64,000 nucleotides of DNA from an uncultured Planctomycetales bacterium (GTDB taxonomy: Bacteria; Omnitrophota; Gorgyraeia; Zapsychrales; Fredricksoniimonadaceae): the NCBI GenBank assembly GCA_964583975.1, contig CAZOXU010000004.1:70100-134099 (forward strand), written 5' to 3'. This document shows positions 12,163 to 52,607 of this stretch, one piece after another. The position numbers and the translations under genes were made by a program. The notes beneath the pieces were generated by a model, which saw only the letters and a program-made list of their open reading frames with translations, did not search any database and was not told the DNA's origin. The first letter of the stretch is position 1, and every line of letters begins with the position of its first letter.

Positions 12163-15100
12163 CTATTTAGAGGTGGAATCAAACAGGTCCAAAGTTTTTG
12201 CTACTTGGTCTTTTCGATCAGGCGTTGAAACCTTCGAAGAATCTACAGCCGTAGAAGATAAATTCTTTTTCATAACTAAAGAATTTTGAGCTAATTGATC
12301 AATCTTGACCTTTAATTTATTCAAATAGTCATCTGTCTTTTTATAATTAGGCATTAAATCTGCAACATCAGAGAATTTTTGGGCTGCGGCTGGATAATGA
12401 CCAGATTTATAAAGTTTAACAGCCTGGGCATACATATCCTCAACACCATTGGCCAGCTGTTGACGAATTGCTTTTCGTTCATTTTCAAGATTTTGTTGAC
12501 GCTCTTTGACTACCTTTGCCATTTCAATGCGTTCTTTTTCATGTTGTTCAACTAATTTATCAGACTTCATACGCTCTAAACGTTGTTTTTCTTTTTCCTC
12601 GGCTTCTTGCCGTCTGCGTTCCATTTCCTTAAGACGTTCTTGCTCTTTTTGTTTGCGTAACTCTTCAAATCGCTTATCTTCTTTTTCTCTTTGTTCTTCT
12701 AATTCTTTCCTAATCTTTTCTTGCTCTTGCTCTTTTTGCTTATTTAATTCTTCCAAATGTTTATTTTCTTTCTCTTTTTGTTCTTCCAAGGCTTGTTTTT
12801 GTTTTGCCTTTTCCTCTTCTTTTTGTTTACGTAAATCTTCTATTCTTTTATGCTCTTGCTCTTTTTTCTCTTCAATAGCTTGACGACGCTTAGCTCGTTC
12901 TTCTTCTTTTTGTTTACGTAAATCTTCAATCCTCTTACGTTCTGCTTCTTTTTTTTCTTGTGCAGTTTGTTTTTGTTTCTCTTTTTCCTGCTCTTTTTGT
13001 TTTTGTAAATCTTCTTTAGGAGGTTCTATAGGAGTAGGCTTTACTAATGGGGTTTCTTGAGTTAAAGGATTCTCAGGAATATGTTTTATATTAACTTTCG
13101 GATCAACCTGAGCAGCAGCACGTTCCTGCTGAGCTTGCTCTTCTGAGACAGGCTTTACCTTCCTAAAATGATATACTTGATCTTTTTGACGGGCTTGTTC
13201 TTCAGCCTGACGGCGTTTATTTTCGATACGTTGATGTCGTCTTTCTTCCAATCTCAAAGATTCGGACCTACGACGTTCTTCTTGTTGCTGTTGCTCTAAC
13301 AAAAGCCGTTGTCTTTCTAACCCTTGGGTTAAATTTCTTTGCCGTTGTTGTTCTTTGACCCCCAGAACATCAGAAAGGCGTTGCTGGCGTAATCTTTCAG
13401 CCAAATAATTCTTACGTTCACGCTCATCTTCCTTCTTGGCCTTTACAAAGCTTTCTTCGATAAGTCGATCGATCTTTCGTAAATATCCTAATGCTCTATC
13501 GTCACCTTGAGAGGCTAACTCTCCAAATATAATCTTTGCTTGATCATATTTCTTAGAATCATACAAATCAACAGCTTGTTGAAAAACACGTTCTTTTTGC
13601 TGTCTTAATTCCTTATCTTTGGAAGCTTGAACTTGCTTATCCATGATAGATTTTTGTTTTTGACGCTCTTTAATAACTTTGGCACTGTCATCGATAGTCC
13701 TGGCCTGTGAGCGTTTTTCATTTAAAATTTTCTGAGCTTCTTGTTTAATAATTCTTTGTTCATCTTTTTGGGAGTTTAACAAGGCTTCTTGTCCCCGCTC
13801 ATGAGCAAGCTTTTCTTTAACAACCTTTAAATCACTCAAAATACTCTCAAGATCTTTAAATTTATCTTTAGCAGCAAGATAGTTCTTAGCTTTTGTTAAG
13901 TTTAAAATTTCATCATTAACATTTGTTGCTTGCTGGGCCAAACTCATCAAGCGCTCTTGCAATTGGGCAATTCGTTCTTTTTTCTGATTCTCTTGTTGTT
14001 CTCTAAGTTTTCTTTCTTCCTCAATAGCTCTTTCTTTCTTAGCATCTTCTTCAACCCTTCGCTGATCTTCATCAATATGGGCCAAATAATTCGAGGTAGA
14101 CTTATACCCTGGTTGATTATTTTCTATCTCCAAAAATCTCTTTTTAGCTCCTTGAAAATCTTTATTCTTTAACATATTTAATGCTTCTTCATATGTTTGC
14201 TGAAGATACCCTAACCTTACTCTTTCTTTTTCTTTTAAGGCCTCTTGTTGACGACGACGTTCTTCTTCTTTAATTTGTCGCAAAACGTATTCTTTTTCCT
14301 TACGTAAATTATTTAAAATACCATCAACCTTAGCTAATTTGTTTTTGGCTGCAATGGTATCTTTATCATCGGCTAAGGTAGTGATTTCTTGATATAATTT
14401 TGAAGATTTTTCTGCTAATTCGCTTAAAAGCTGCGCTTCATTTATTTGTTCTTCTCTAGATAAATTTGACTGTATTGGTGTCGCTGCAACAACCTCTGCA
14501 GGTTTAGGCTGAGGCTCAGCCTTATGTTGCTCTAATTGTTTTTGTTTGGACAATACTTCTTGTCTTTGAACTTCTTCTTGGCGCCTTTTGACCTCTTGTT
14601 CACGTTTCTGCTGTTGCTCCAATGCTTTTTGTTTTTCCCGTTCTTCGGCTTTCTTTTGTAATTCTTCTTTTCTTTTAGATTCTTCATCTTTTTTGCGTTG
14701 CAACTCAGCAGCTTTCTTTTGAGCTAGTTCTTCTTGCTTTTTAACTATTTCTTGCCGTCTCTTGGCTTCTTGCTCTTGTTTTTGTTGGCGCTCTAAAGCT
14801 TTTTGCTTTTCTCGTTCTTCAGCTTGTTTTTGCTTTTCTTCATTTAACTTCTTTGCTTCTTCTTGTTTACGTTGCTGATCTTGCTCGCGTTGTTTAACCA
14901 ATTCTTCGCTTTTCTTTTGAAGTGCTTCATCGCGGTCTATTCTTTCTAAATAATAATTAACCGATTTGTAGCCTGTTAACTGGCGATCCACTGATTGAAA
15001 TTTTTCGCGAGCTTGAACGTATTGCTTATCCTTAAATAAACTTAATGCCATACTATAGTCCGCCTCGACTCTAGCTAAAAATTCCTTTTTTTCTTGCTGT

Positions 15101-16377
15101 TGTTTACGGATTTCTTCTTGTTTTTGAACTTCAAATTGTTTTCTTCGTTCAAAATCAGCCTGTCGCTGTTGACGTTTTAATTCTTCGGTGCGAAGCCTAG
15201 ATTCAAAAGCTTCTCTTTCGGCAATCTGTTGGTCAATGGCATTAAGAAAGGTATGCGTCAACCTATAATTATCTGCCACTTTCTCAAGATTAAGAAACTC
15301 ATCTCTTGCTTCGGCATATTTCTTCTGACGGAATAACGCTAGGGCTTTTTTGTAGATTTCTTCAGCGGAAGGATTGTCTTGTTTTAAAACAGTTATATTT
15401 TCTTGATTCTGCGCTTCATCTAATTTAATTTTGCGTTCTAATTCCTGCTGGATTTTAGCATCTTGCTGTTGTTGAAAGGCTAATTTCTGTTCTCTATCAG
15501 CCTTTTCTTCTTTGAGTTGACGCTCCAAAGCCTTTTGGTTCTCTATATCTTGTATTTTTTGAGATCGTTCTTGTTGCTTTTGTAAGTCTTCTTGTTGTTT
15601 TCTAAATTGTTCTTCCTGCTTGTTTATATCCTCTTGTTGCTTCTTTCTTGCTTCTTGTTGGGCACGCTCTTGTTCTAACTGCTTTTTTAAAGCTAAATTT
15701 TCTTCTCTGAGCTGCTCTTGCTTTTGGAGCATTTTTTGCTTTTCTAACATCTGGGCTTCTTGAGCAAGGGCTTTATCAATAAGAACAAAATAATTAGAGG
15801 TGGATTTGTAATCGCCCACCAAATCTTCTATGTTTTTAAATAATTCTCTGGATTCAACAAATTTTCTTGCTTTATATAGTTCAACGGCTTTTTGATATTT
15901 TTTGTCTAATTCCTTTTGAAGGCCTTTCTGAATATTTTGTTCTTCAATTTGCTGTCTCTCTTTTTCTTTCTTTAAAGCAAGCTCTTGCTTTCTTAATCGT
16001 TCTTGAGATTTCTTGATGTTTTCCAGTAATTCGGAGCGTTCGGAAATACTAACAGCCTTATCAAAATAATATCGAGCTTGATCAAACTTTCCTTGGTCAG
16101 CCAAACGCAACCCCATATCGTAATATTCGTTAGCACGATCTTCTCTTATTTCCTGCTTTTTAGCCATTGAATCAGCCCTGATCTTATCATTTAGTTTTTT
16201 GATATTATCTTTGGATTCATTGATAAGACTTTTTAAAGTTTCTTGATAAGTGCTGCTGGGAGGTTCTTCGTAATCCGAACCATCTAACTGGTCAGAAGTT
16301 GCATCATAAGTAATAACAAAAGAAGAAGAAATAAATATTAGTGAAGTGATTAAAAAAAGTGGAAGAATTTTTCGCAT
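12163..16377 (-). CDS. Very large (1404 aa) secreted K/E/Q/R-rich coiled-coil protein with about 8 dispersed TPR-like 45-aa modules
   Basis: A signal peptide is present. The module (Y..A..L(Y/F)..KKY..A...F..........YK.T..YL..ID) recurs, separated by long charged heptad-like linkers. It abuts the yyaL gene with a 0-nt gap. Confidence 0.7.
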   Translation of the reverse strand: MRKILPLFLITSLIFISSSFVITYDATSDQLDGSDYEEPPSSTYQETLKSLINESKDNIKKLNDKIRADSMAKKQEIREDRANEYYDMGLRLADQGKFDQARYYFDKAVSISERSELLENIKKSQERLRKQELALKKEKERQQIEEQNIQKGLQKELDKKYQKAVELYKARKFVESRELFKNIEDLVGDYKSTSNYFVLIDKALAQEAQMLEKQKMLQKQEQLREENLALKKQLEQERAQQEARKKQQEDINKQEEQFRKQQEDLQKQQERSQKIQDIENQKALERQLKEEKADREQKLAFQQQQDAKIQQELERKIKLDEAQNQENITVLKQDNPSAEEIYKKALALFRQKKYAEARDEFLNLEKVADNYRLTHTFLNAIDQQIAEREAFESRLRTEELKRQQRQADFERRKQFEVQKQEEIRKQQQEKKEFLARVEADYSMALSLFKDKQYVQAREKFQSVDRQLTGYKSVNYYLERIDRDEALQKKSEELVKQREQDQQRKQEEAKKLNEEKQKQAEEREKQKALERQQKQEQEAKRRQEIVKKQEELAQKKAAELQRKKDEESKRKEELQKKAEEREKQKALEQQQKREQEVKRRQEEVQRQEVLSKQKQLEQHKAEPQPKPAEVVAATPIQSNLSREEQINEAQLLSELAEKSSKLYQEITTLADDKDTIAAKNKLAKVDGILNNLRKEKEYVLRQIKEEERRRQQEALKEKERVRLGYLQQTYEEALNMLKNKDFQGAKKRFLEIENNQPGYKSTSNYLAHIDEDQRRVEEDAKKERAIEEERKLREQQENQKKERIAQLQERLMSLAQQATNVNDEILNLTKAKNYLAAKDKFKDLESILSDLKVVKEKLAHERGQEALLNSQKDEQRIIKQEAQKILNEKRSQARTIDDSAKVIKERQKQKSIMDKQVQASKDKELRQQKERVFQQAVDLYDSKKYDQAKIIFGELASQGDDRALGYLRKIDRLIEESFVKAKKEDERERKNYLAERLRQQRLSDVLGVKEQQRQRNLTQGLERQRLLLEQQQQEERRRSESLRLEERRHQRIENKRRQAEEQARQKDQVYHFRKVKPVSEEQAQQERAAAQVDPKVNIKHIPENPLTQETPLVKPTPIEPPKEDLQKQKEQEKEKQKQTAQEKKEAERKRIEDLRKQKEEERAKRRQAIEEKKEQEHKRIEDLRKQKEEEKAKQKQALEEQKEKENKHLEELNKQKEQEQEKIRKELEEQREKEDKRFEELRKQKEQERLKEMERRRQEAEEKEKQRLERMKSDKLVEQHEKERIEMAKVVKERQQNLENERKAIRQQLANGVEDMYAQAVKLYKSGHYPAAAQKFSDVADLMPNYKKTDDYLNKLKVKIDQLAQNSLVMKKNLSSTAVDSSKVSTPDRKDQVAKTLDLFDSTSK
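12816..12960. repeat. Direct tandem DNA repeat (~88-nt period, 2+ copies) inside the coiled-coil gene
   Basis: An identical 25-mer (cttctttttgtttacgtaaatcttc) occurs at 12816 and 12904, with similar flanks. It encodes repeated ...RKQKEEE(R/K)AK... segments. Confidence 0.7.
14586..14860. repeat. Direct DNA repeat (~180-nt period, 2 copies, ~75% identical) inside the coiled-coil gene
   Basis: The segment 14610-14665 resembles 14790-14845. It encodes duplicated EEREKQKALE(R/Q)QQK(Q/R)EQE(A/V)KRRQE blocks. Confidence 0.6.
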
Positions 16378-45199: not shown

Positions 45200-45853
45200 T
45201 TATTTACTATAACGAGCCATGCCACCGAAACGCTCATCACAATCTTTACGAACCTCATTAATGTATTTAAGATTCAGCTGCTGGATCTCTTTTTGTTCGT
45301 TTTCATTTAACCAAGACAAATAACGTTGTGGCTCCTTGGGATCAGGATCAATAACCTTATCAGTCTTGATCGCTGCTGTGACTGAAGCAATATCTTCCTT
45401 AAGCATTTTCTTATCTTCCTCGGACAATTCCTGGTCCGTCTGTAATCGTTGATTGAGATTGTTCGCCACCAAACGGTAAAAATACCCTTTAGACTGATGT
45501 GTGCAATTCATAATGTTGTCCATACCGTTTTGACAAGTTGCTGAATTGGCACCGGCACATGTCACCTGCGTCCCCCATTCACCTTTAATTGGATTACTAG
45601 TTGGGGTTAATTCAAAATTGCCAGTGTTCTCATTGGACAGAATAGATCCATCCTTGGATCTTGATCCTGACTTAGGCAAAGATGATGCCATTCCATCCAT
45701 CTGTTGCTTAGCGCGTTTGACCTGTTCGGTTTTTTGGTTTGCCTCATTGATTTTACCTGTAGCTTGATTGACCACATCCCAAAGACCCGCATGCGCAGGA
45801 ATTGAGGATAAACATATACACAACATCAACACGGCCCTCATAAAAAATCTCAT
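45200..45853 (-). CDS. Hypothetical secreted protein with one copy of a Cys-framed ~120-aa repeat domain
   Basis: It has a signal peptide. The pattern C..C..C...KGY...L..NL...L.......K....EDIA......DPDP.EP.RY..W...E...Q.......R.DC is shared with the adjacent paralogue. Confidence 0.5.
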   Translation of the reverse strand: MRFFMRAVLMLCICLSSIPAHAGLWDVVNQATGKINEANQKTEQVKRAKQQMDGMASSLPKSGSRSKDGSILSNENTGNFELTPTSNPIKGEWGTQVTCAGANSATCQNGMDNIMNCTHQSKGYFYRLVANNLNQRLQTDQELSEEDKKMLKEDIASVTAAIKTDKVIDPDPKEPQRYLSWLNENEQKEIQQLNLKYINEVRKDCDERFGGMARYSK

Positions 45854-45866
45854 ATTTAATCTCCTT

Positions 45867-47216
45867 TTATAAACCAGATGGTTTGCTATTACATTCCTTG
45901 ATAATCTTATTACTAAAATCTAAATGCTGCTTATTAATAGCGGCACGCTCGGCATTGCTTACGTAATCGTACCAGCGGTATGGATTATTAGGATCTGGTG
46001 ATTCAGGACTGTCCTTACCTTGCGCTTGAGCAGCACGCCATGCAGCAATATCCTCTTGCCACTCCTTACGTTTCTGATCAGAAACTCCCGAGGCAGCTTT
46101 CAATTTATTTTCAAGAGTGTCAGCAGTAACCTTCGCCAAATGACCTTTAAGCGCATCAGCACACCCTTTATCACGGCGCAAAGCCAACAGGTTAGTTGAT
46201 CCTCCACGACCTTTATTTAAATCGTCATAATTCTTATCAGTATTAACCGGCTTAGCCCTCTTATTAGCCGGAGATTTAGATCTATCTACCAATCCCCCAC
46301 TCTTAGGCGTATTTCTTGTAGGTCCGGTCTTTTGACATTCAGCAATCGCCGCCTGACTTTGTTTAGAATATTCCGTATTGAGCGCCATCTGTTCATCCGT
46401 AGTCAAACGCATCAATGCTCTCGTAGGATTACTCGGATCAATGGCTTTTGGCATCATAGCGCCTGATGTAGGCAATTCGCGGATAGAAGCAATGTCTGCT
46501 TCCCAATCCGCACGTTCTTTGGCCGATAGGTTCGCAGCATTCATCTTCTTCTCCATCATATCCGCCATGATTGTAAAACGAAGAGTGCTAATACCTTTCA
46601 GACAGTCAAACGGCTTTACTTCGTTTGCTCTCTTCTCACGGAGCTGGGCAATAGCTTGCTCACATGTAAGCGTCTCTTGATCCTGCATCATCTCTGTACG
46701 CTTGCCGGTTCCCATATGATCCGCACCCATACATTTGTTATAAATCTTTTTATAAAAGGCCCCATAATCAGCATTAATGCAAACCTGATCTTCCTCAGTT
46801 AAACCTGAAACATTCTGGTTATCAGATTTCTTTTTCTCAGATTCCCTGACCATAGCCAACTCTTCTTCAATTTTCTTGCGCTTGCGATCAGTTAATTGTT
46901 CTGTCTTTAATTTCTTCTCAAGCAAATCACCCGTCAATTTCATACGATAACCCTTAAGTGGTTCCATACAATGGTCAGCTAATTCCATGTAATCCATACA
47001 AGTAGCGCTGCGCTTGCCTTCGCAACTTCCTGTTTTGTCATGGTCTTCTAAATGTAAAGGACGGTCAGGATCCTCTGCAGCCTTGCCTTTTCCCTTGGTG
47101 ACATTCTTAACATCTTGGGCAGCTGCCTTAATTTGATCAAATAAACCAGCCTGCGTTTGCGTTGCAGGAAGGGTTAAACAAAACATCGCCAACATAACGG
47201 GAATTAAATATTTCAT
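45867..47216 (-). CDS. Hypothetical secreted protein with two copies of the same Cys-framed repeat domain
   Basis: It has a signal peptide (MKYLIPVMLAMFCLTLPATQTQA). N- and C-terminal copies of the domain match the 45200-45853 gene (...KGYRMKLTGDLLEKKL... and ...KGHLAKVTADTLENKL...DPNNPYRWYDY). Confidence 0.5.
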   Translation of the reverse strand: MKYLIPVMLAMFCLTLPATQTQAGLFDQIKAAAQDVKNVTKGKGKAAEDPDRPLHLEDHDKTGSCEGKRSATCMDYMELADHCMEPLKGYRMKLTGDLLEKKLKTEQLTDRKRKKIEEELAMVRESEKKKSDNQNVSGLTEEDQVCINADYGAFYKKIYNKCMGADHMGTGKRTEMMQDQETLTCEQAIAQLREKRANEVKPFDCLKGISTLRFTIMADMMEKKMNAANLSAKERADWEADIASIRELPTSGAMMPKAIDPSNPTRALMRLTTDEQMALNTEYSKQSQAAIAECQKTGPTRNTPKSGGLVDRSKSPANKRAKPVNTDKNYDDLNKGRGGSTNLLALRRDKGCADALKGHLAKVTADTLENKLKAASGVSDQKRKEWQEDIAAWRAAQAQGKDSPESPDPNNPYRWYDYVSNAERAAINKQHLDFSNKIIKECNSKPSGL

Positions 47217-47290
47217 TCTTGTTCTCCTTGATTTAAAAAAACTGGATAGTTGTGCTGAGGCTAGCCAGCCTACTAAGATTCTAGACAATA

Positions 47291-48714: not shown

Positions 48715-48773
48715 CGCTCCATCCTACTGTCCCTCTAACGTATGGTCAATGAATTACTCCAAGATAAAATAAT

Positions 48774-48798
48774 AAAGCCCATCTTTTGGATGGGCTTT
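48774..48798 (-). terminator. Rho-independent terminator downstream of the OLD-family ATPase gene
   Basis: The stem aaagcccatc/gatgggcttt with a 5-nt loop is flanked by A/T runs on both sides, so it may act bidirectionally. Confidence 0.6.
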
Positions 48799-48904
48799 AT
48801 TATTCATATTGGCTCCCCCTAGGAGACGAGTTTATGAACTTTCTAGGATCAATTGATCATCAAATATTGATGGCTTTAATTAATGCAACCAATACCAAAA
48901 CCAT

Positions 48905-50806
48905 TTAACTTATCTTCTTAGAAACATGTAAATGAACTGGATCTAAAAGTTCTTTAAATTCAACCGTGTTAAGATATTGACTTATAGGCTGCTTATTTGC
49001 TAACGCTTCATAGATGATTTTAATAACTCCCTGTTCCTTGCTTTCAACGCCTTTTAGTAATTGCTTGGCAGAATCCAGATAGAAACCTTCCAATTCATCA
49101 GAAAGAATGAACAAGCGTGCGCTAGATCTCAATTCATTTAAAAGAACTCTCACTTCGGGCGCTAACTTTTTATCAATCTGATTTATATTCTTATATTTAC
49201 CTGAAATGTTAATCTTTGATTTCAAAGAATTAACGGAATCCTTGAGTTCTTTCTTAAATTCTAAACTTGTAAGATACTCTGATAAACCTTCTCTTAGAAA
49301 ATCAAAATCACTTAAAACGCAATGAGGGATTGACACTTCTTTTAACTTTTTCGCATACTTCCAGAATTCCATCTTACCGCCACAATTAATAATTGAAATA
49401 TTATATTCATCTAACCAACCTTCTCCCCACCCTTTCTCAACACCACACTCCTTTGCAATTTCTTCCAAAATATACTTATCTCCCCCTTCAACTAAAATAA
49501 CAAGATCAGCAAAAAACATCTCAGTATTCTGTGATTTTAACAATATTTGTCTTTCTTTAACTTCTGAAAAACTAGTATTAGTTGCTACCGTTCCTTTGTT
49601 GAGATCTTTTCGAACAACAATAACATTAAGATTATTCTTTGTAGTCGCAATAAATTCTGAAGAATGTGTAGTAAGAATAACTTGATTTTTACCCTCATCC
49701 AGAAAATGGTCCAATCGCTCTGATATGACTCTTCGCCCATGTGGATGTAAATATAACTCTGGTTCTTCAATTGCCAACAAGGAACTCCCCCCAGAATTAT
49801 CAACTTCTTTAGTATAAAAATCAAAAAGGCCGATTATAACAGCACTTTGAAGCCCAGCCCCTTTATCTTGTAATTGACTATTAAACCCATCATCAACATA
49901 TATCAAAGCACTCTTATATATATCTTGCTTTTTATCTGGATTTAATTGAATGGAAATTTTAGTATTAGGGAAAGCAACTTGCACCTTACTATTATTAATT
50001 TTAGTTTCTAAATTCTTAAAAACTTCTGTAGATGCTTTCTTTACTTCGTTAAATGCAGTTTGTAACTTCGTATTTCCAGAATCAATTGTTTTTCTTAACA
50101 ACTTACCATACCAACTGTAATTACTAATACGTAGTTGTGCTTGTGGATCCCTAAAAGACGGGATTATTGCACTTTTAATTAATTCATTTCTAATTGTTGC
50201 TTTAAAAGCAAGAACCCAAGAAGAAGAAACATTCTCTCTATATAAGAATCTAATATCTTTTTTAATCCCTTTATCTGTCTTTTGAGCCAAAAAACAATAC
50301 GCAAAATGATACTTATCTTCAAGTTGGCTTTTAAAAGTTGTTTGATTCCATAATTTTGGATTTATATATTCAGAATCATAATTAATATTTTCTTCATCAA
50401 AATTAAAAAGAGCTATTAAATCATCAGGGATTTTATTAACCGAATGTCTTATTGCTTCTCTAGTTTTTGGCTTCTTATTCTCCCATTCTGTTACCTTGGA
50501 ATGAATTTTATAACCATAACAAGTATGAATTTCTTCATAATTTAGTTTTTCATGAACAGATCTTGTAAGTTCAGCAAAAATCAATAATCGTTTTGACTGG
50601 TCACCATTATAGAAATCATTATCTGTAATATTTTCAAATTTTTCATAAGTTGGGGTACTATCACCTAAAATTAAATCAATTGCCTTTAAAATATTACTCT
50701 TCCCAGAATTATTTCTACCAACAATTACATTCTTGCCCTGAGTAAATTTTAAATCCAACTCTTTAATCGAACGGTAATTCTGGATATAAACCCTTGATAA
50801 ATACAT
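48905..50806 (-). CDS. OLD-family ABC-type ATPase with C-terminal Toprim nuclease domain (GajA-like architecture)
   Basis: The ATPase motifs are Walker A (VIVGRNNSGKSNILKAI), signature-like (KGAGLQS), Walker B (LLAIEEPELYLHP) and H-loop (TTHS). The C-terminal Toprim has ILVEGGDKY and ...LSDFD. The product is 633 aa. Confidence 0.8.
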   Translation of the reverse strand: MYLSRVYIQNYRSIKELDLKFTQGKNVIVGRNNSGKSNILKAIDLILGDSTPTYEKFENITDNDFYNGDQSKRLLIFAELTRSVHEKLNYEEIHTCYGYKIHSKVTEWENKKPKTREAIRHSVNKIPDDLIALFNFDEENINYDSEYINPKLWNQTTFKSQLEDKYHFAYCFLAQKTDKGIKKDIRFLYRENVSSSWVLAFKATIRNELIKSAIIPSFRDPQAQLRISNYSWYGKLLRKTIDSGNTKLQTAFNEVKKASTEVFKNLETKINNSKVQVAFPNTKISIQLNPDKKQDIYKSALIYVDDGFNSQLQDKGAGLQSAVIIGLFDFYTKEVDNSGGSSLLAIEEPELYLHPHGRRVISERLDHFLDEGKNQVILTTHSSEFIATTKNNLNVIVVRKDLNKGTVATNTSFSEVKERQILLKSQNTEMFFADLVILVEGGDKYILEEIAKECGVEKGWGEGWLDEYNISIINCGGKMEFWKYAKKLKEVSIPHCVLSDFDFLREGLSEYLTSLEFKKELKDSVNSLKSKINISGKYKNINQIDKKLAPEVRVLLNELRSSARLFILSDELEGFYLDSAKQLLKGVESKEQGVIKIIYEALANKQPISQYLNTVEFKELLDPVHLHVSKKIS

Positions 50807-50808
50807 TT

Positions 50809-51744
50809 CTAACCTTTCAGATTTATAAAACGCTCATAAACCTGTCTTAGTAAAAATACAGCATAATCAACGTCTTTAATATTCGATAAGAAATAATCGC
50901 TAATATGTTGATTGTAATACTCGAAACTCTTTTCTCTGTAGATAACTTTATTCTCAGGATCTTTTAAATCTTTTGGCTGAGTTCTTCCAAACCATAAAAT
51001 AATCTTAGATTTTTGAATATGAACTCCACACATCACAGAATTATCTATTTTAAACCCCACATAAGCTCTTTGAGGACTTTCATAAAGCCTACTATCTAAC
51101 TCTAGTATTCTATCTCTTAACTTTTGATAAACTTCTTTTGTAATGGGCCAATTAGATTTGAAATGATCTTCAACCGAATATTTTTTGACCTCCTTAGCAA
51201 CCTTTTCTAAAGAAGAACCCAATTTAGATACAGTCTTAATCGACTCAGCACCATCAAAAGAAACCAGTTCATTTAGAGACACCGATCCATCCTCATATTT
51301 CTTGATCTCCCATAACTCCATAGGAAGATCTTTAAAATTTGTTGCTTGTCTCTGATAATTAGTAAAAGAAGGCGAAACGAATATGACTCTGGACTGCGTC
51401 CAATCAACCTGATCTTTCTTAAGATGATTCTTTTGACGCTCGTTATATTCCAAAATAAAATCGGCTTTATTATTCAAAAGCAAAGCTAAATATGCAAACC
51501 CTTGATCAATTACTGAAAAGTTCTTATTTTGCTTATATTCAATAATAACGAAAGATTTCGTCTCCAGATCAAAAGCTAGTGTATCAACCCGTAAGCCATG
51601 AAGTTGGAACTCAGAACGCACATACTCAAGCCCAAAGAACAGCTCTACATTACTTTCAATCAAATCTTTGATCTCATTCTCTGAAAGAAAGGGTTTTTCG
51701 GAAAGTTTCTTTATCTTACTTTTATCAAAAACATAGTGAGCCAT
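50809..51744 (-). CDS. NucS/DUF91-like PD-(D/E)xK nuclease-fold protein with uncharacterised C-terminal domain
   Basis: The N-terminal segment ENEIKDLIESNVELFFGLEYVRSEFQLHGLRVDTLAFDLETKSFVIIEYKQNKNFSVIDQGFAYL follows the NucS-type pattern (E..L..G...R.....G.ID.LA.D..G..VVIELK......V.GQ...Y). The stop lies 2 nt from the ATPase start. Confidence 0.6.
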   Translation of the reverse strand: MAHYVFDKSKIKKLSEKPFLSENEIKDLIESNVELFFGLEYVRSEFQLHGLRVDTLAFDLETKSFVIIEYKQNKNFSVIDQGFAYLALLLNNKADFILEYNERQKNHLKKDQVDWTQSRVIFVSPSFTNYQRQATNFKDLPMELWEIKKYEDGSVSLNELVSFDGAESIKTVSKLGSSLEKVAKEVKKYSVEDHFKSNWPITKEVYQKLRDRILELDSRLYESPQRAYVGFKIDNSVMCGVHIQKSKIILWFGRTQPKDLKDPENKVIYREKSFEYYNQHISDYFLSNIKDVDYAVFLLRQVYERFINLKG

Positions 51745-52005
51745 TAAAACCTCCTTTTGGATGATTTAGCATATCATAAAGGTTACAATTTAGGATGGTT
51801 TTTAGCCCTACAGTATTTCTTTCCTAACGTAACGTTCGTTGATATACTTTCCGCATGGGAAAAGCCAAAGAAAACCAATACAAAACGAGTAACGAAGCCC
51901 TCGAAGCTTCTATTTCAAGGGGAAGATGAAGAACGTTTCTAAATATCCCTATACACTGCAATGGTTTCCGACAGAACTTTACCCATTCTCCTCATTTCTT
52001 TTTAT

Positions 52006-52326
52006 TTAATGTAAATCATTATTAACTACAACGGCTCTCTCACCATTCAAAAAAATACTCTTCCCATCTAAATGATTGTCAGCAATGTAACTATACTTAC
52101 CGTTATCTAAAATTCCCCTAGGGTCATTAGAGCTACTCTGACCTTTATTTTCTTGAACCTGCTCCTCCTTGAATGTTGCAAATTGTTCACCTTTTTTTCC
52201 AGAAAAACCTTTAATCCACCCCACAATTCCCATTAAAGAAGCAACAAGAATTATTATAATGAAACCATTCTTAGGATTTCTTTTAAAATCTTTAAACATT
52301 TTCTTAAATTCTGCATAAGACCACAT
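52006..52326 (-). CDS. Hypothetical small single-pass membrane protein
   Basis: It is 106 aa with one TM helix (GFIIIILVASLMGIVGWI) and lies inside the AT-rich island between the defence-like pair and tRNA-Asn. Confidence 0.4.
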   Translation of the reverse strand: MWSYAEFKKMFKDFKRNPKNGFIIIILVASLMGIVGWIKGFSGKKGEQFATFKEEQVQENKGQSSSNDPRGILDNGKYSYIADNHLDGKSIFLNGERAVVVNNDLH

Positions 52327-52483
52327 AATACCCCCCTTATGTTTGCTAATACCATAATTGGATTAATAGTACTTAACCAAAATTCCTTGTCAAACAATTT
52401 GAATTCCTAACCATTTAAGAATACAAGACCGGTTGACATCTAATAATAATTTAGTATAATTCTCGCCTAGTCAAAAGTCTTAT

Positions 52484-52557
52484 TCCCCTGTAGCTCAGTT
52501 AGGTAGAGCAGCGCGCTGTTAACGCGCTTGTCCGAGGTTCGAGCCCTCGCGGGGGAG
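52484..52557 (+). tRNA. tRNA-Asn (anticodon GTT)
   Basis: A cloverleaf is present. The acceptor is TCCCCTG/CGGGGGA with one G.U pair. The D-arm is TAGCTCAGTTAGGTAGAGCA. The anticodon stem GCGCG/CGCGC carries the loop CTGTTAA. The T-arm is GGTTCGAGCCC. CCA is not encoded. Confidence 0.85.
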
Positions 52558-52567
52558 TTTATATAAC

Positions 52568-52607
52568 AAAAAACCCTATTCTTGTAATTTAAGAATAGGG
52601 TTTTTTT
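52568..52607. terminator. Bidirectional rho-independent terminator between tRNA-Asn and recR
   Basis: The stem ccctattctt/aagaataggg with a 7-nt loop has an A6 run on one side and a T7 run on the other. Confidence 0.7.

Follow-up and report, generated by a model that had tools for sequence, protein, structure and literature searches.

Does a small nuclease-like protein encoded directly ahead of an OLD-family ATPase form a dedicated pair with it, or do the two genes merely share a location? The question is raised by a gene in a stretch of 64 000 nucleotides from an Omnitrophota contig (hereafter the window), for which a first-pass annotation had proposed a NucS-type nuclease as partner of the ATPase and, after contrasting the gene order with that of Gabija and PARIS, had asked whether it is the sensor or the effector. 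The gene order that it described was borne out, the stop codon of the small gene (TAG) being followed by 2 nt and then by the ATG of a 633-aa OLD-family protein. The features concerned are:

50809..51744, minus strand: PDC-S18/DUF5655-family gene, 311 aa (ORF list, PADLOC and homologues), with its stop codon at 50809-50811
51750..51757, minus strand: Shine-Dalgarno sequence AAAGGAGG, preceding the start codon of the 311-aa gene (read from the sequence)
48905..50806, minus strand: 633-aa OLD-family nuclease, an ABC ATPase-TOPRIM fusion (Pfam AAA_15 and OLD-like_TOPRIM)

The ORF is a real gene of a large family with fixed architecture, since more than 6215 homologues were found and nearly all of them are ~307 aa long. 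Inspection of the sequence places a GGAGG Shine-Dalgarno ~5 nt 5' of its ATG, which amounts to a strong ribosome-binding site.

Domain architecture and predicted active site

An AlphaFold model of the full protein, built on 37 homologues (mean pLDDT 86, pTM 0.71), shows two domains and, between them, a linker that is poorly ordered. The parts of the coding sequence are as follows:

51250..51744, minus strand: PD-(D/E)xK nuclease domain, residues 1-165 (AlphaFold model, Foldseek, weak profile matches)
51532..51585, minus strand: putative catalytic stretch from D54 to E69-x-K71 (RVDTLAFD...VIIEYK), invariant in alignments
51190..51249, minus strand: low-confidence linker, residues 166-185 (pLDDT 50-66)
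50812..51189, minus strand: DUF5655 domain, residues 186-311 (Pfam, model of the domain, pI)

According to the secondary structure of the model, the N-terminal domain is built of a beta-hairpin, an alpha-beta-beta-beta-alpha-beta core and an extra beta-hairpin. It extends to residue ~165 and thus well beyond the end at ~105 initially assigned to it; likewise, the peptide quoted in support of a NucS/DUF91 layout (ENEIKDL...GFAYL) is present in the protein, but it occupies residues 22-86 rather than ~30-105. The layout itself stood up to scrutiny. Pfam NucS_C aligned with residues 21-93 (E = 6e-4, 20.2 bits) and scored somewhat higher when the isolated domain was searched (E = 1e-4, 22.6 bits), in both cases below the gathering cut-off of 24 bits; a weak, sub-threshold match to HSDR_N_2 was also obtained. 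The restriction-endonuclease-like fold that had been anticipated is present in the model, for which the best Foldseek matches in the PDB were EndoMS (5gke) and NucS (2vld; E ~2e-4, probability 1.00), followed by SfsA, the Shedu nuclease domain 8ti9 (weakly), Cap4, Card1 and the R2 endonuclease, all of the PD-(D/E)xK type.

The motif residues proved to be strictly conserved. In the 37 homologues (48-59% identity), E22, E30, N32, E45, R52, D54, E69, K71, D80, Q81, G82 and Y85 are invariant. In a wider alignment, which includes proteins from Acinetobacter, Rhizobium, Streptomyces and Clostridium and goes down to 20-23% identity, E69, K71, Q81 and Y85 are still invariant, while D54, E45 and R52 occur without exception in the full-length members. 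The catalytic residues are therefore invariant across phyla in the two alignments, and the expected conservation of a D/E/K triad holds for D54, E69 and K71. The model puts D54 on strand 51-59 and E69 on strand 64-70, K71 coming right after the latter, and places Q81 and Y85 in the helix that follows. These observations support the assignment of residues 1-165 as a predicted NucS-type PD-(D/E)xK nuclease core with an intact D54-E69-K71 metal-binding triad.

The linker carries a conserved E167-S168-I169 motif, of which E167 and S168 are invariant in the 37 homologues. The C-terminal part, initially described as ~190 aa devoid of recognisable motifs, is in fact a DUF5655 domain (PF18899; 27.5 bits for a cut-off of 24), of which profile positions 1-60 of 109 alone were matched. 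The match stops at position 60 because the second half is divergent in the subfamily of the 311-aa protein, which has YYNQHIS where the canonical motif is GHxGxGD; a homologue from another locus, L088, covers profile positions 1-104. Modelled alone, the domain reached a pLDDT of 91.8 and forms a sandwich of a helix, a 5-stranded sheet and a long C-terminal helix. Its fold matches are weak (best E = 0.03, TM 0.45-0.55) and comprise SycT, which is a type III secretion chaperone, PA14_16140, YjbR and a YdhG-like protein; a search of PDB sequences with the profile of the domain returned nothing meaningful. The two domains differ in charge, DUF5655 being basic, with a pI of 9.2 (median in the family 9.0), and the nuclease domain acidic (pI 5.3 in the 311-aa protein, 5.2 across the family). 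As far as composition goes, this charge distribution is compatible with a role in nucleic-acid binding; any role proposed for DUF5655 is a guess, since the fold has no strong structural relative.

The PDC-S18 family and its genomic company

The protein matched the PADLOC profile PDC-S18 (PDLC04945) over practically its whole length (E = 3e-100; residues 1-303 against profile positions 1-301 of 302). The phage defence candidates (PDCs) are a set of 145 single- or multi-gene candidates established on the basis of 'guilt-by-embedding', i.e. of genes located within BREX, DISARM or type I restriction-modification (R-M) loci (Payne et al. 2024, bioRxiv 10.1101/2024.01.29.577857). PDC-S18 is modelled in PADLOC as a single-gene candidate. 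A literature search for PDC-S18 found no mention of it, and DUF5655 turned up in a single paper; the 311-aa protein matched nothing in PHROGs or NCBIfam.

When 1.84 billion cluster representatives were searched with a profile, 2663 clusters (at 50% identity) were retrieved with E <=1e-3 and 451 with E <=1e-30; among the best 150 representatives, nearly all are 300-320 aa long and have the same two domains. The family has a patchy distribution that takes in Patescibacteria, Bacteroidota, Proteobacteria, Firmicutes, Actinobacteria, archaea, plasmids and a few phages, and its plasmid members appear in RefSeq as 'DUF5655 domain-containing protein'. It is not confined to cellular genomes, as a few sequence homologues are found in phage or phage-like records (MT837077, MT836554 and OR850898); Gp54 of Bacillus phage G (BFVD G3MBC4) is a full-length structural analogue (E = 2.6e-13). 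Two copies look like decayed members: one on a Staphylococcus epidermidis plasmid (L175, 5040-5747), annotated as 235 aa, is N-terminally truncated and lacks the D54 strand, and one from Leptospiraceae (L047, 10001-10906) contains an in-frame stop.

The neighbourhoods of 78 family loci were then considered. At 23 of them hsdR, hsdM or hsdS lies within 6 kb, often at less than 60 nt and on the same strand, and the 125 immediate neighbours of family genes include 12 HsdR-like and 10 HsdM-like proteins. The gene of the closest homologue (59% identity) starts 6 nt after hsdR in a type I restriction operon; on Acinetobacter plasmids the family gene is found between hsdS and hsdR, and distant members in Rhizobium and Staphylococcus also adjoin hsd genes. 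Other copies reside beside type II R-M genes together with SIR2, an AAA_13 ATPase or a NACHT protein. Embedding of the PDC kind is thus seen for the family, in type I R-M, and not at the locus of the 311-aa gene itself, since no hsd homologue occurs anywhere in the 64-kb window. The link of the family to defence draws on a minority of loci (the 23 of 78) and on the plasmid cases. The protein is a member of an already catalogued, widespread candidate anti-phage family, and its locus an ordinary small defence islet.

The islet, the OLD gene and the question of pairing

The GC content across 49-51 kb of the window is 0.305, against ~0.40 in both flanks. This low-GC islet measures 3.7 kb, is located between tRNA-Asn/recR and engB, and holds a 106-aa ORF, the PDC-S18 gene and the OLD gene. 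In addition to the two genes listed above, the following features mark it out:

48768..48804, no strand assigned: hairpin with a perfect 16-bp stem (inverted repeat between the OLD stop codon and engB)
52006..52326, minus strand: 106-aa ORF whose N-terminal segment is hydrophobic; upstream end of the islet (ORF list)
52483..52558, plus strand: tRNA-Asn(GTT) bordering the islet (ARAGORN)

The hairpin is likely the terminator of the islet transcript. Upstream of the 106-aa ORF there is a promoter-like site (52393-52366); the ORF itself has no match in Pfam, PADLOC, NCBIfam or PHROG, and its membership of the islet is uncertain. In two related Omnitrophota contigs, the Tex-epimerase-dnaX-recR-tRNA-Asn block is kept and is followed by a serine recombinase and a different cargo, which makes the site of the islet a variable one. 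Named homologues of the Tex protein assign the host to Candidatus Omnitrophota. A search around the islet for flanking direct repeats or an att-like duplication of the tRNA found none, so that an integration event is deduced solely from GC content and from the variable cargo in relatives. The recR-tRNA-Asn site looks like an integration hotspot.

Several other features of the region were noted. The tRNA-Asn(GTT) region of the window (52433-52606) contains a sigma70-like promoter that is perfect (12/12) and a terminator with a 16-bp stem, and the tRNA gene converges on recR. The orientation differs in the two related contigs (L176, 14483-15489; L177, 11835-13566), where the tRNA is oriented as recR, the serine-recombinase gene overlaps the 3' end of the tRNA and different cargo comes after it. 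Elsewhere in the window, a 1404-aa ORF on the minus strand (12163-16377) falls where the AT skew is extreme (-0.3 to -0.4, plus strand); its single match in Pfam is an N-terminal TPR. Two adjacent minus-strand ORFs of 217 and 473 aa (45200-45853 and 45867-47288) have signal-peptide-like N-termini, similar-looking Cys-containing repeats and no Pfam match; they may encode paralogous secreted proteins.

The OLD neighbour scored in PADLOC with Old (3e-53) and GajA (2e-49). Among solved structures it has one strong relative, TsOLD of Class 1 (6p74; E = 1.8e-21); GajA of Gabija did not appear among its PDB sequence matches. The Walker A and B motifs, the H-loop and the TOPRIM acidic residues are invariant among its relatives. 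Under the published class definitions (PMC10568477), it is closest to Class 1 (solo) OLD, having ATPase and TOPRIM fused and neither a helicase nor a retron partner. Class 1 OLD genes are usually not near other defence genes (PMC10568477), which does not hold at the present locus.

The neighbours of OLD relatives are mixed: they include Mrr_cat, an HmaC fragment, HsdS, AbiJ, DUF2130, a DNA methylase, PDC-S11 and unrelated proteins. Several close relatives adjoin defence genes, namely an HmaC fragment (L169, 2-3149), HsdS and then DUF2130 (L101, 3601-8256), and AbiJ (L111, 4151-7049). This tucked-in placement echoes the embedded ABC ATPase-TOPRIM genes of Payne et al. (bioRxiv 10.1101/2024.01.29.577857). 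At L088 (125-5687), the OLD gene is followed by PDC-S18 and this in turn by the gene for an 811-aa subtilase (Peptidase_S8). At L091 (2329-8151), L092 and L095, an 888-aa ResIII/SNF2 helicase with a C-terminal TnsA/NERD-like nuclease precedes the OLD gene, which is followed by a gene for a 369-aa NucS-like + DUF4268 protein (PADLOC PDC-S11, E = 4e-159), with gene gaps of 5-20 nt; this arrangement could be a three-gene module. A conserved upstream partner was sought next to the closest OLD relatives (L168, L169 and L101) and rejected, the upstream proteins being mutually unrelated.

Four readings of the locus can be weighed against these data. One of them, a true two-gene system of the PDC-S18 protein with the OLD nuclease, would give the PD-(D/E)xK protein the part of a sensor or co-effector (cf. 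GajA/GajB and AriA/AriB) and would constitute a new OLD class; the genomic surveys are largely against it. No OLD-like ORF was detected up to 10 kb from the family gene at any of the 78 family loci (E up to 10), and a PDC-S18 gene was present at a single one of 81 OLD-relative loci, L088. There, the two genes are separated by 8 nt and so provide a second juxtaposition; nonetheless, the family gene is downstream of OLD, in reversed order relative to the window, and its product belongs to the other C-terminal subfamily, with the GHxGxGD motif. The L088 and window juxtapositions are for these reasons independent. The 2-nt gap, the common strand and the shared islet do speak for a pair, as does the fact that other close OLD relatives tightly precede different PD-(D/E)xK proteins; however, gaps of <=2 nt are common in the window even between functionally unrelated genes (e.g. 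dnaX and the epimerase gene), the genes upstream of the closest OLD relatives bear no relation to one another, and both families are already modelled in PADLOC as single-gene systems. The notion of a dedicated, Gabija- or PARIS-like partner of the ATPase, further weakened by the position of the closest homologue after hsdR, could not be sustained, and we regard a two-gene system as unlikely. We conclude that PDC-S18 and OLD are independent modules sharing an islet and not an obligate pair. The two genes are probably co-transcribed, and the 2-nt spacing together with the second, independent juxtaposition leaves some room for cooperation. Small PD-(D/E)xK proteins are found beside OLDs of this clade in three guises: PDC-S18 (window and L088), PDC-S11 (L091, L092 and L095) and a Mrr_cat protein (L167). 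It is a long shot that solo OLDs of the clade repeatedly recruit a tightly coupled protein of this kind, and that they would thereby make up a modular two-nuclease system, again a new OLD class, with interchangeable NucS-like partners.

A different reading takes the protein for an accessory or 'guard' of type I R-M, for instance a back-up nuclease that would act when Hsd is inhibited, so that the window copy would be an orphan without its host system; PrrC, which accompanies EcoprrI, offers an analogy. This proposal fits the operons of Proteobacteria, Bacteroidota, Patescibacteria and Firmicutes in which the gene is placed tightly behind hsd genes or between them, and also the weak HSDR_N_2 matches of the N-terminal domain. 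Yet 55 of the 78 loci have no recognised hsd gene within 6 kb, hsd homologues are absent from the window, and elsewhere the gene is found beside type II enzymes, SIR2, NACHT or AAA_13 proteins; a guard function is in our estimation improbable. The chance that the protein is a housekeeping NucS/EndoMS-type endonuclease of mismatch or branched-DNA repair is slighter by far. Such an enzyme would agree with the best structural matches and with the spacing of D, E, K, Q and Y, which we take to resemble that of NucS, but NucS_C remained below its gathering cut-off, the N-terminal domain of NucS is missing, and the whole-family profile retrieved no PDB sequence at E up to 10. Moreover, the gene sits in a low-GC islet at a variable site, and the family is patchily distributed, with members on plasmids and in defence operons. 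Overall, the locus is best explained, probably although by no means certainly, by a stand-alone two-domain PDC-S18 nuclease, a candidate single-gene anti-phage module that landed beside an independent Class-1-like OLD.

Taking the gene, its fold, its conserved residues, its family membership and its genomic associations as observed, we infer nuclease activity, a role for DUF5655 and a defence function along the following lines. The stand-alone PDC-S18 protein would be a Mg2+-dependent DNA endonuclease in which DUF5655, by binding a phage cue or nucleic acid, may determine target choice or activation. Acting without a partner, the protein would serve as an anti-phage module that works in a restriction-like, and possibly type-IV-like, manner. 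The family would travel through defence loci, most often type I R-M operons, and in this Omnitrophota genome its gene presumably came to rest next to the OLD gene within the islet.

On this account the window contains a small defence islet with two independent candidate nucleases and not a new Gabija- or PARIS-like pair. What remains of interest is the candidate family itself and, with weak support, the possible cooperation of solo OLDs with small PD-(D/E)xK proteins. The family is large (2663 clusters), its predicted active site is intact and its association with type I restriction operons is strong. Learning the target of DUF5655 would add a new single-protein restriction-like mechanism and would account for a gene that is a common 'passenger' at type I R-M loci.

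Comparison with known systems

The closest counterpart is PDC-S18 as defined in PADLOC, with which the protein shares the full-length HMM match, the length and the two-domain architecture; the family is likewise found at type I R-M operons. The window copy differs in that it is not embedded in a host defence system and is located beside a solo OLD, and its subfamily departs, with YYNQHIS, from the canonical GHxGxGD of DUF5655. With NucS/EndoMS (2vld, 5gke), the protein has in common the PD-(D/E)xK fold type of the NucS C-terminal domain and the motif pattern R-x-D-x-L-A-x-D ... V-I-I-E-x-K ... Q-x-x-x-Y. In contrast to NucS, it does not have the N-terminal DNA-binding domain (Pfam and model), the core starting at residue ~22 after a short beta-hairpin; its nuclease domain is N-terminal instead of C-terminal and has DUF5655 attached; and its context is mobile or defence-related rather than that of repair.

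Shedu (SduA, DUF4263) has a similar single-protein design, in which a NucS-like nuclease is combined with a swappable accessory domain, and its nuclease domain (8ti9) is a weak fold match as mentioned above. The accessory domain is C-terminal in the 311-aa protein, unlike in Shedu, and neither DUF4263 nor SduA profiles matched the protein in Pfam and PADLOC at E up to 1. PDC-S11 carries an N-terminal nuclease domain of the PDC-S18 type but has DUF4268 in the place of DUF5655 (PADLOC cross-match, 6.7e-8), and hhalign pairs the RxDxLAxD and VIIExK motifs of the two profiles. The N-terminal domains are linked by profile methods only, BLASTP of PDC-S18 against the DUF4268 protein having returned nothing. 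Profile comparison suggests a constant nuclease with exchangeable accessory domains, a design that may be akin to that of Shedu. Type IV and Mrr-like stand-alone nucleases also resemble the protein, as each combines a small PD-(D/E)xK nuclease with a putative DNA-reader and occurs beside hsd genes; they differ in that the 311-aa protein has no recognised reader of modified bases (SRA, PUA or EVE-like). A dependence of the 311-aa protein on DNA modification is pure conjecture.

As for the two systems invoked at the outset, the likeness to Gabija lies in the neighbouring gene, which encodes an OLD-family ABC ATPase with TOPRIM as GajA does. A UvrD-like GajB is lacking, however, the neighbouring genes being engB and the 106-aa ORF, with no helicase in or beside the islet. 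PARIS splits the ATPase and TOPRIM parts over AriA and AriB, whereas they are fused here on one 633-aa polypeptide, and the small gene encodes a PD-(D/E)xK protein and not a TOPRIM one. The locus differs from both systems in that its small gene is no conserved companion of the OLD gene; among solved structures, TsOLD, of Class 1, comes closest to the OLD protein.
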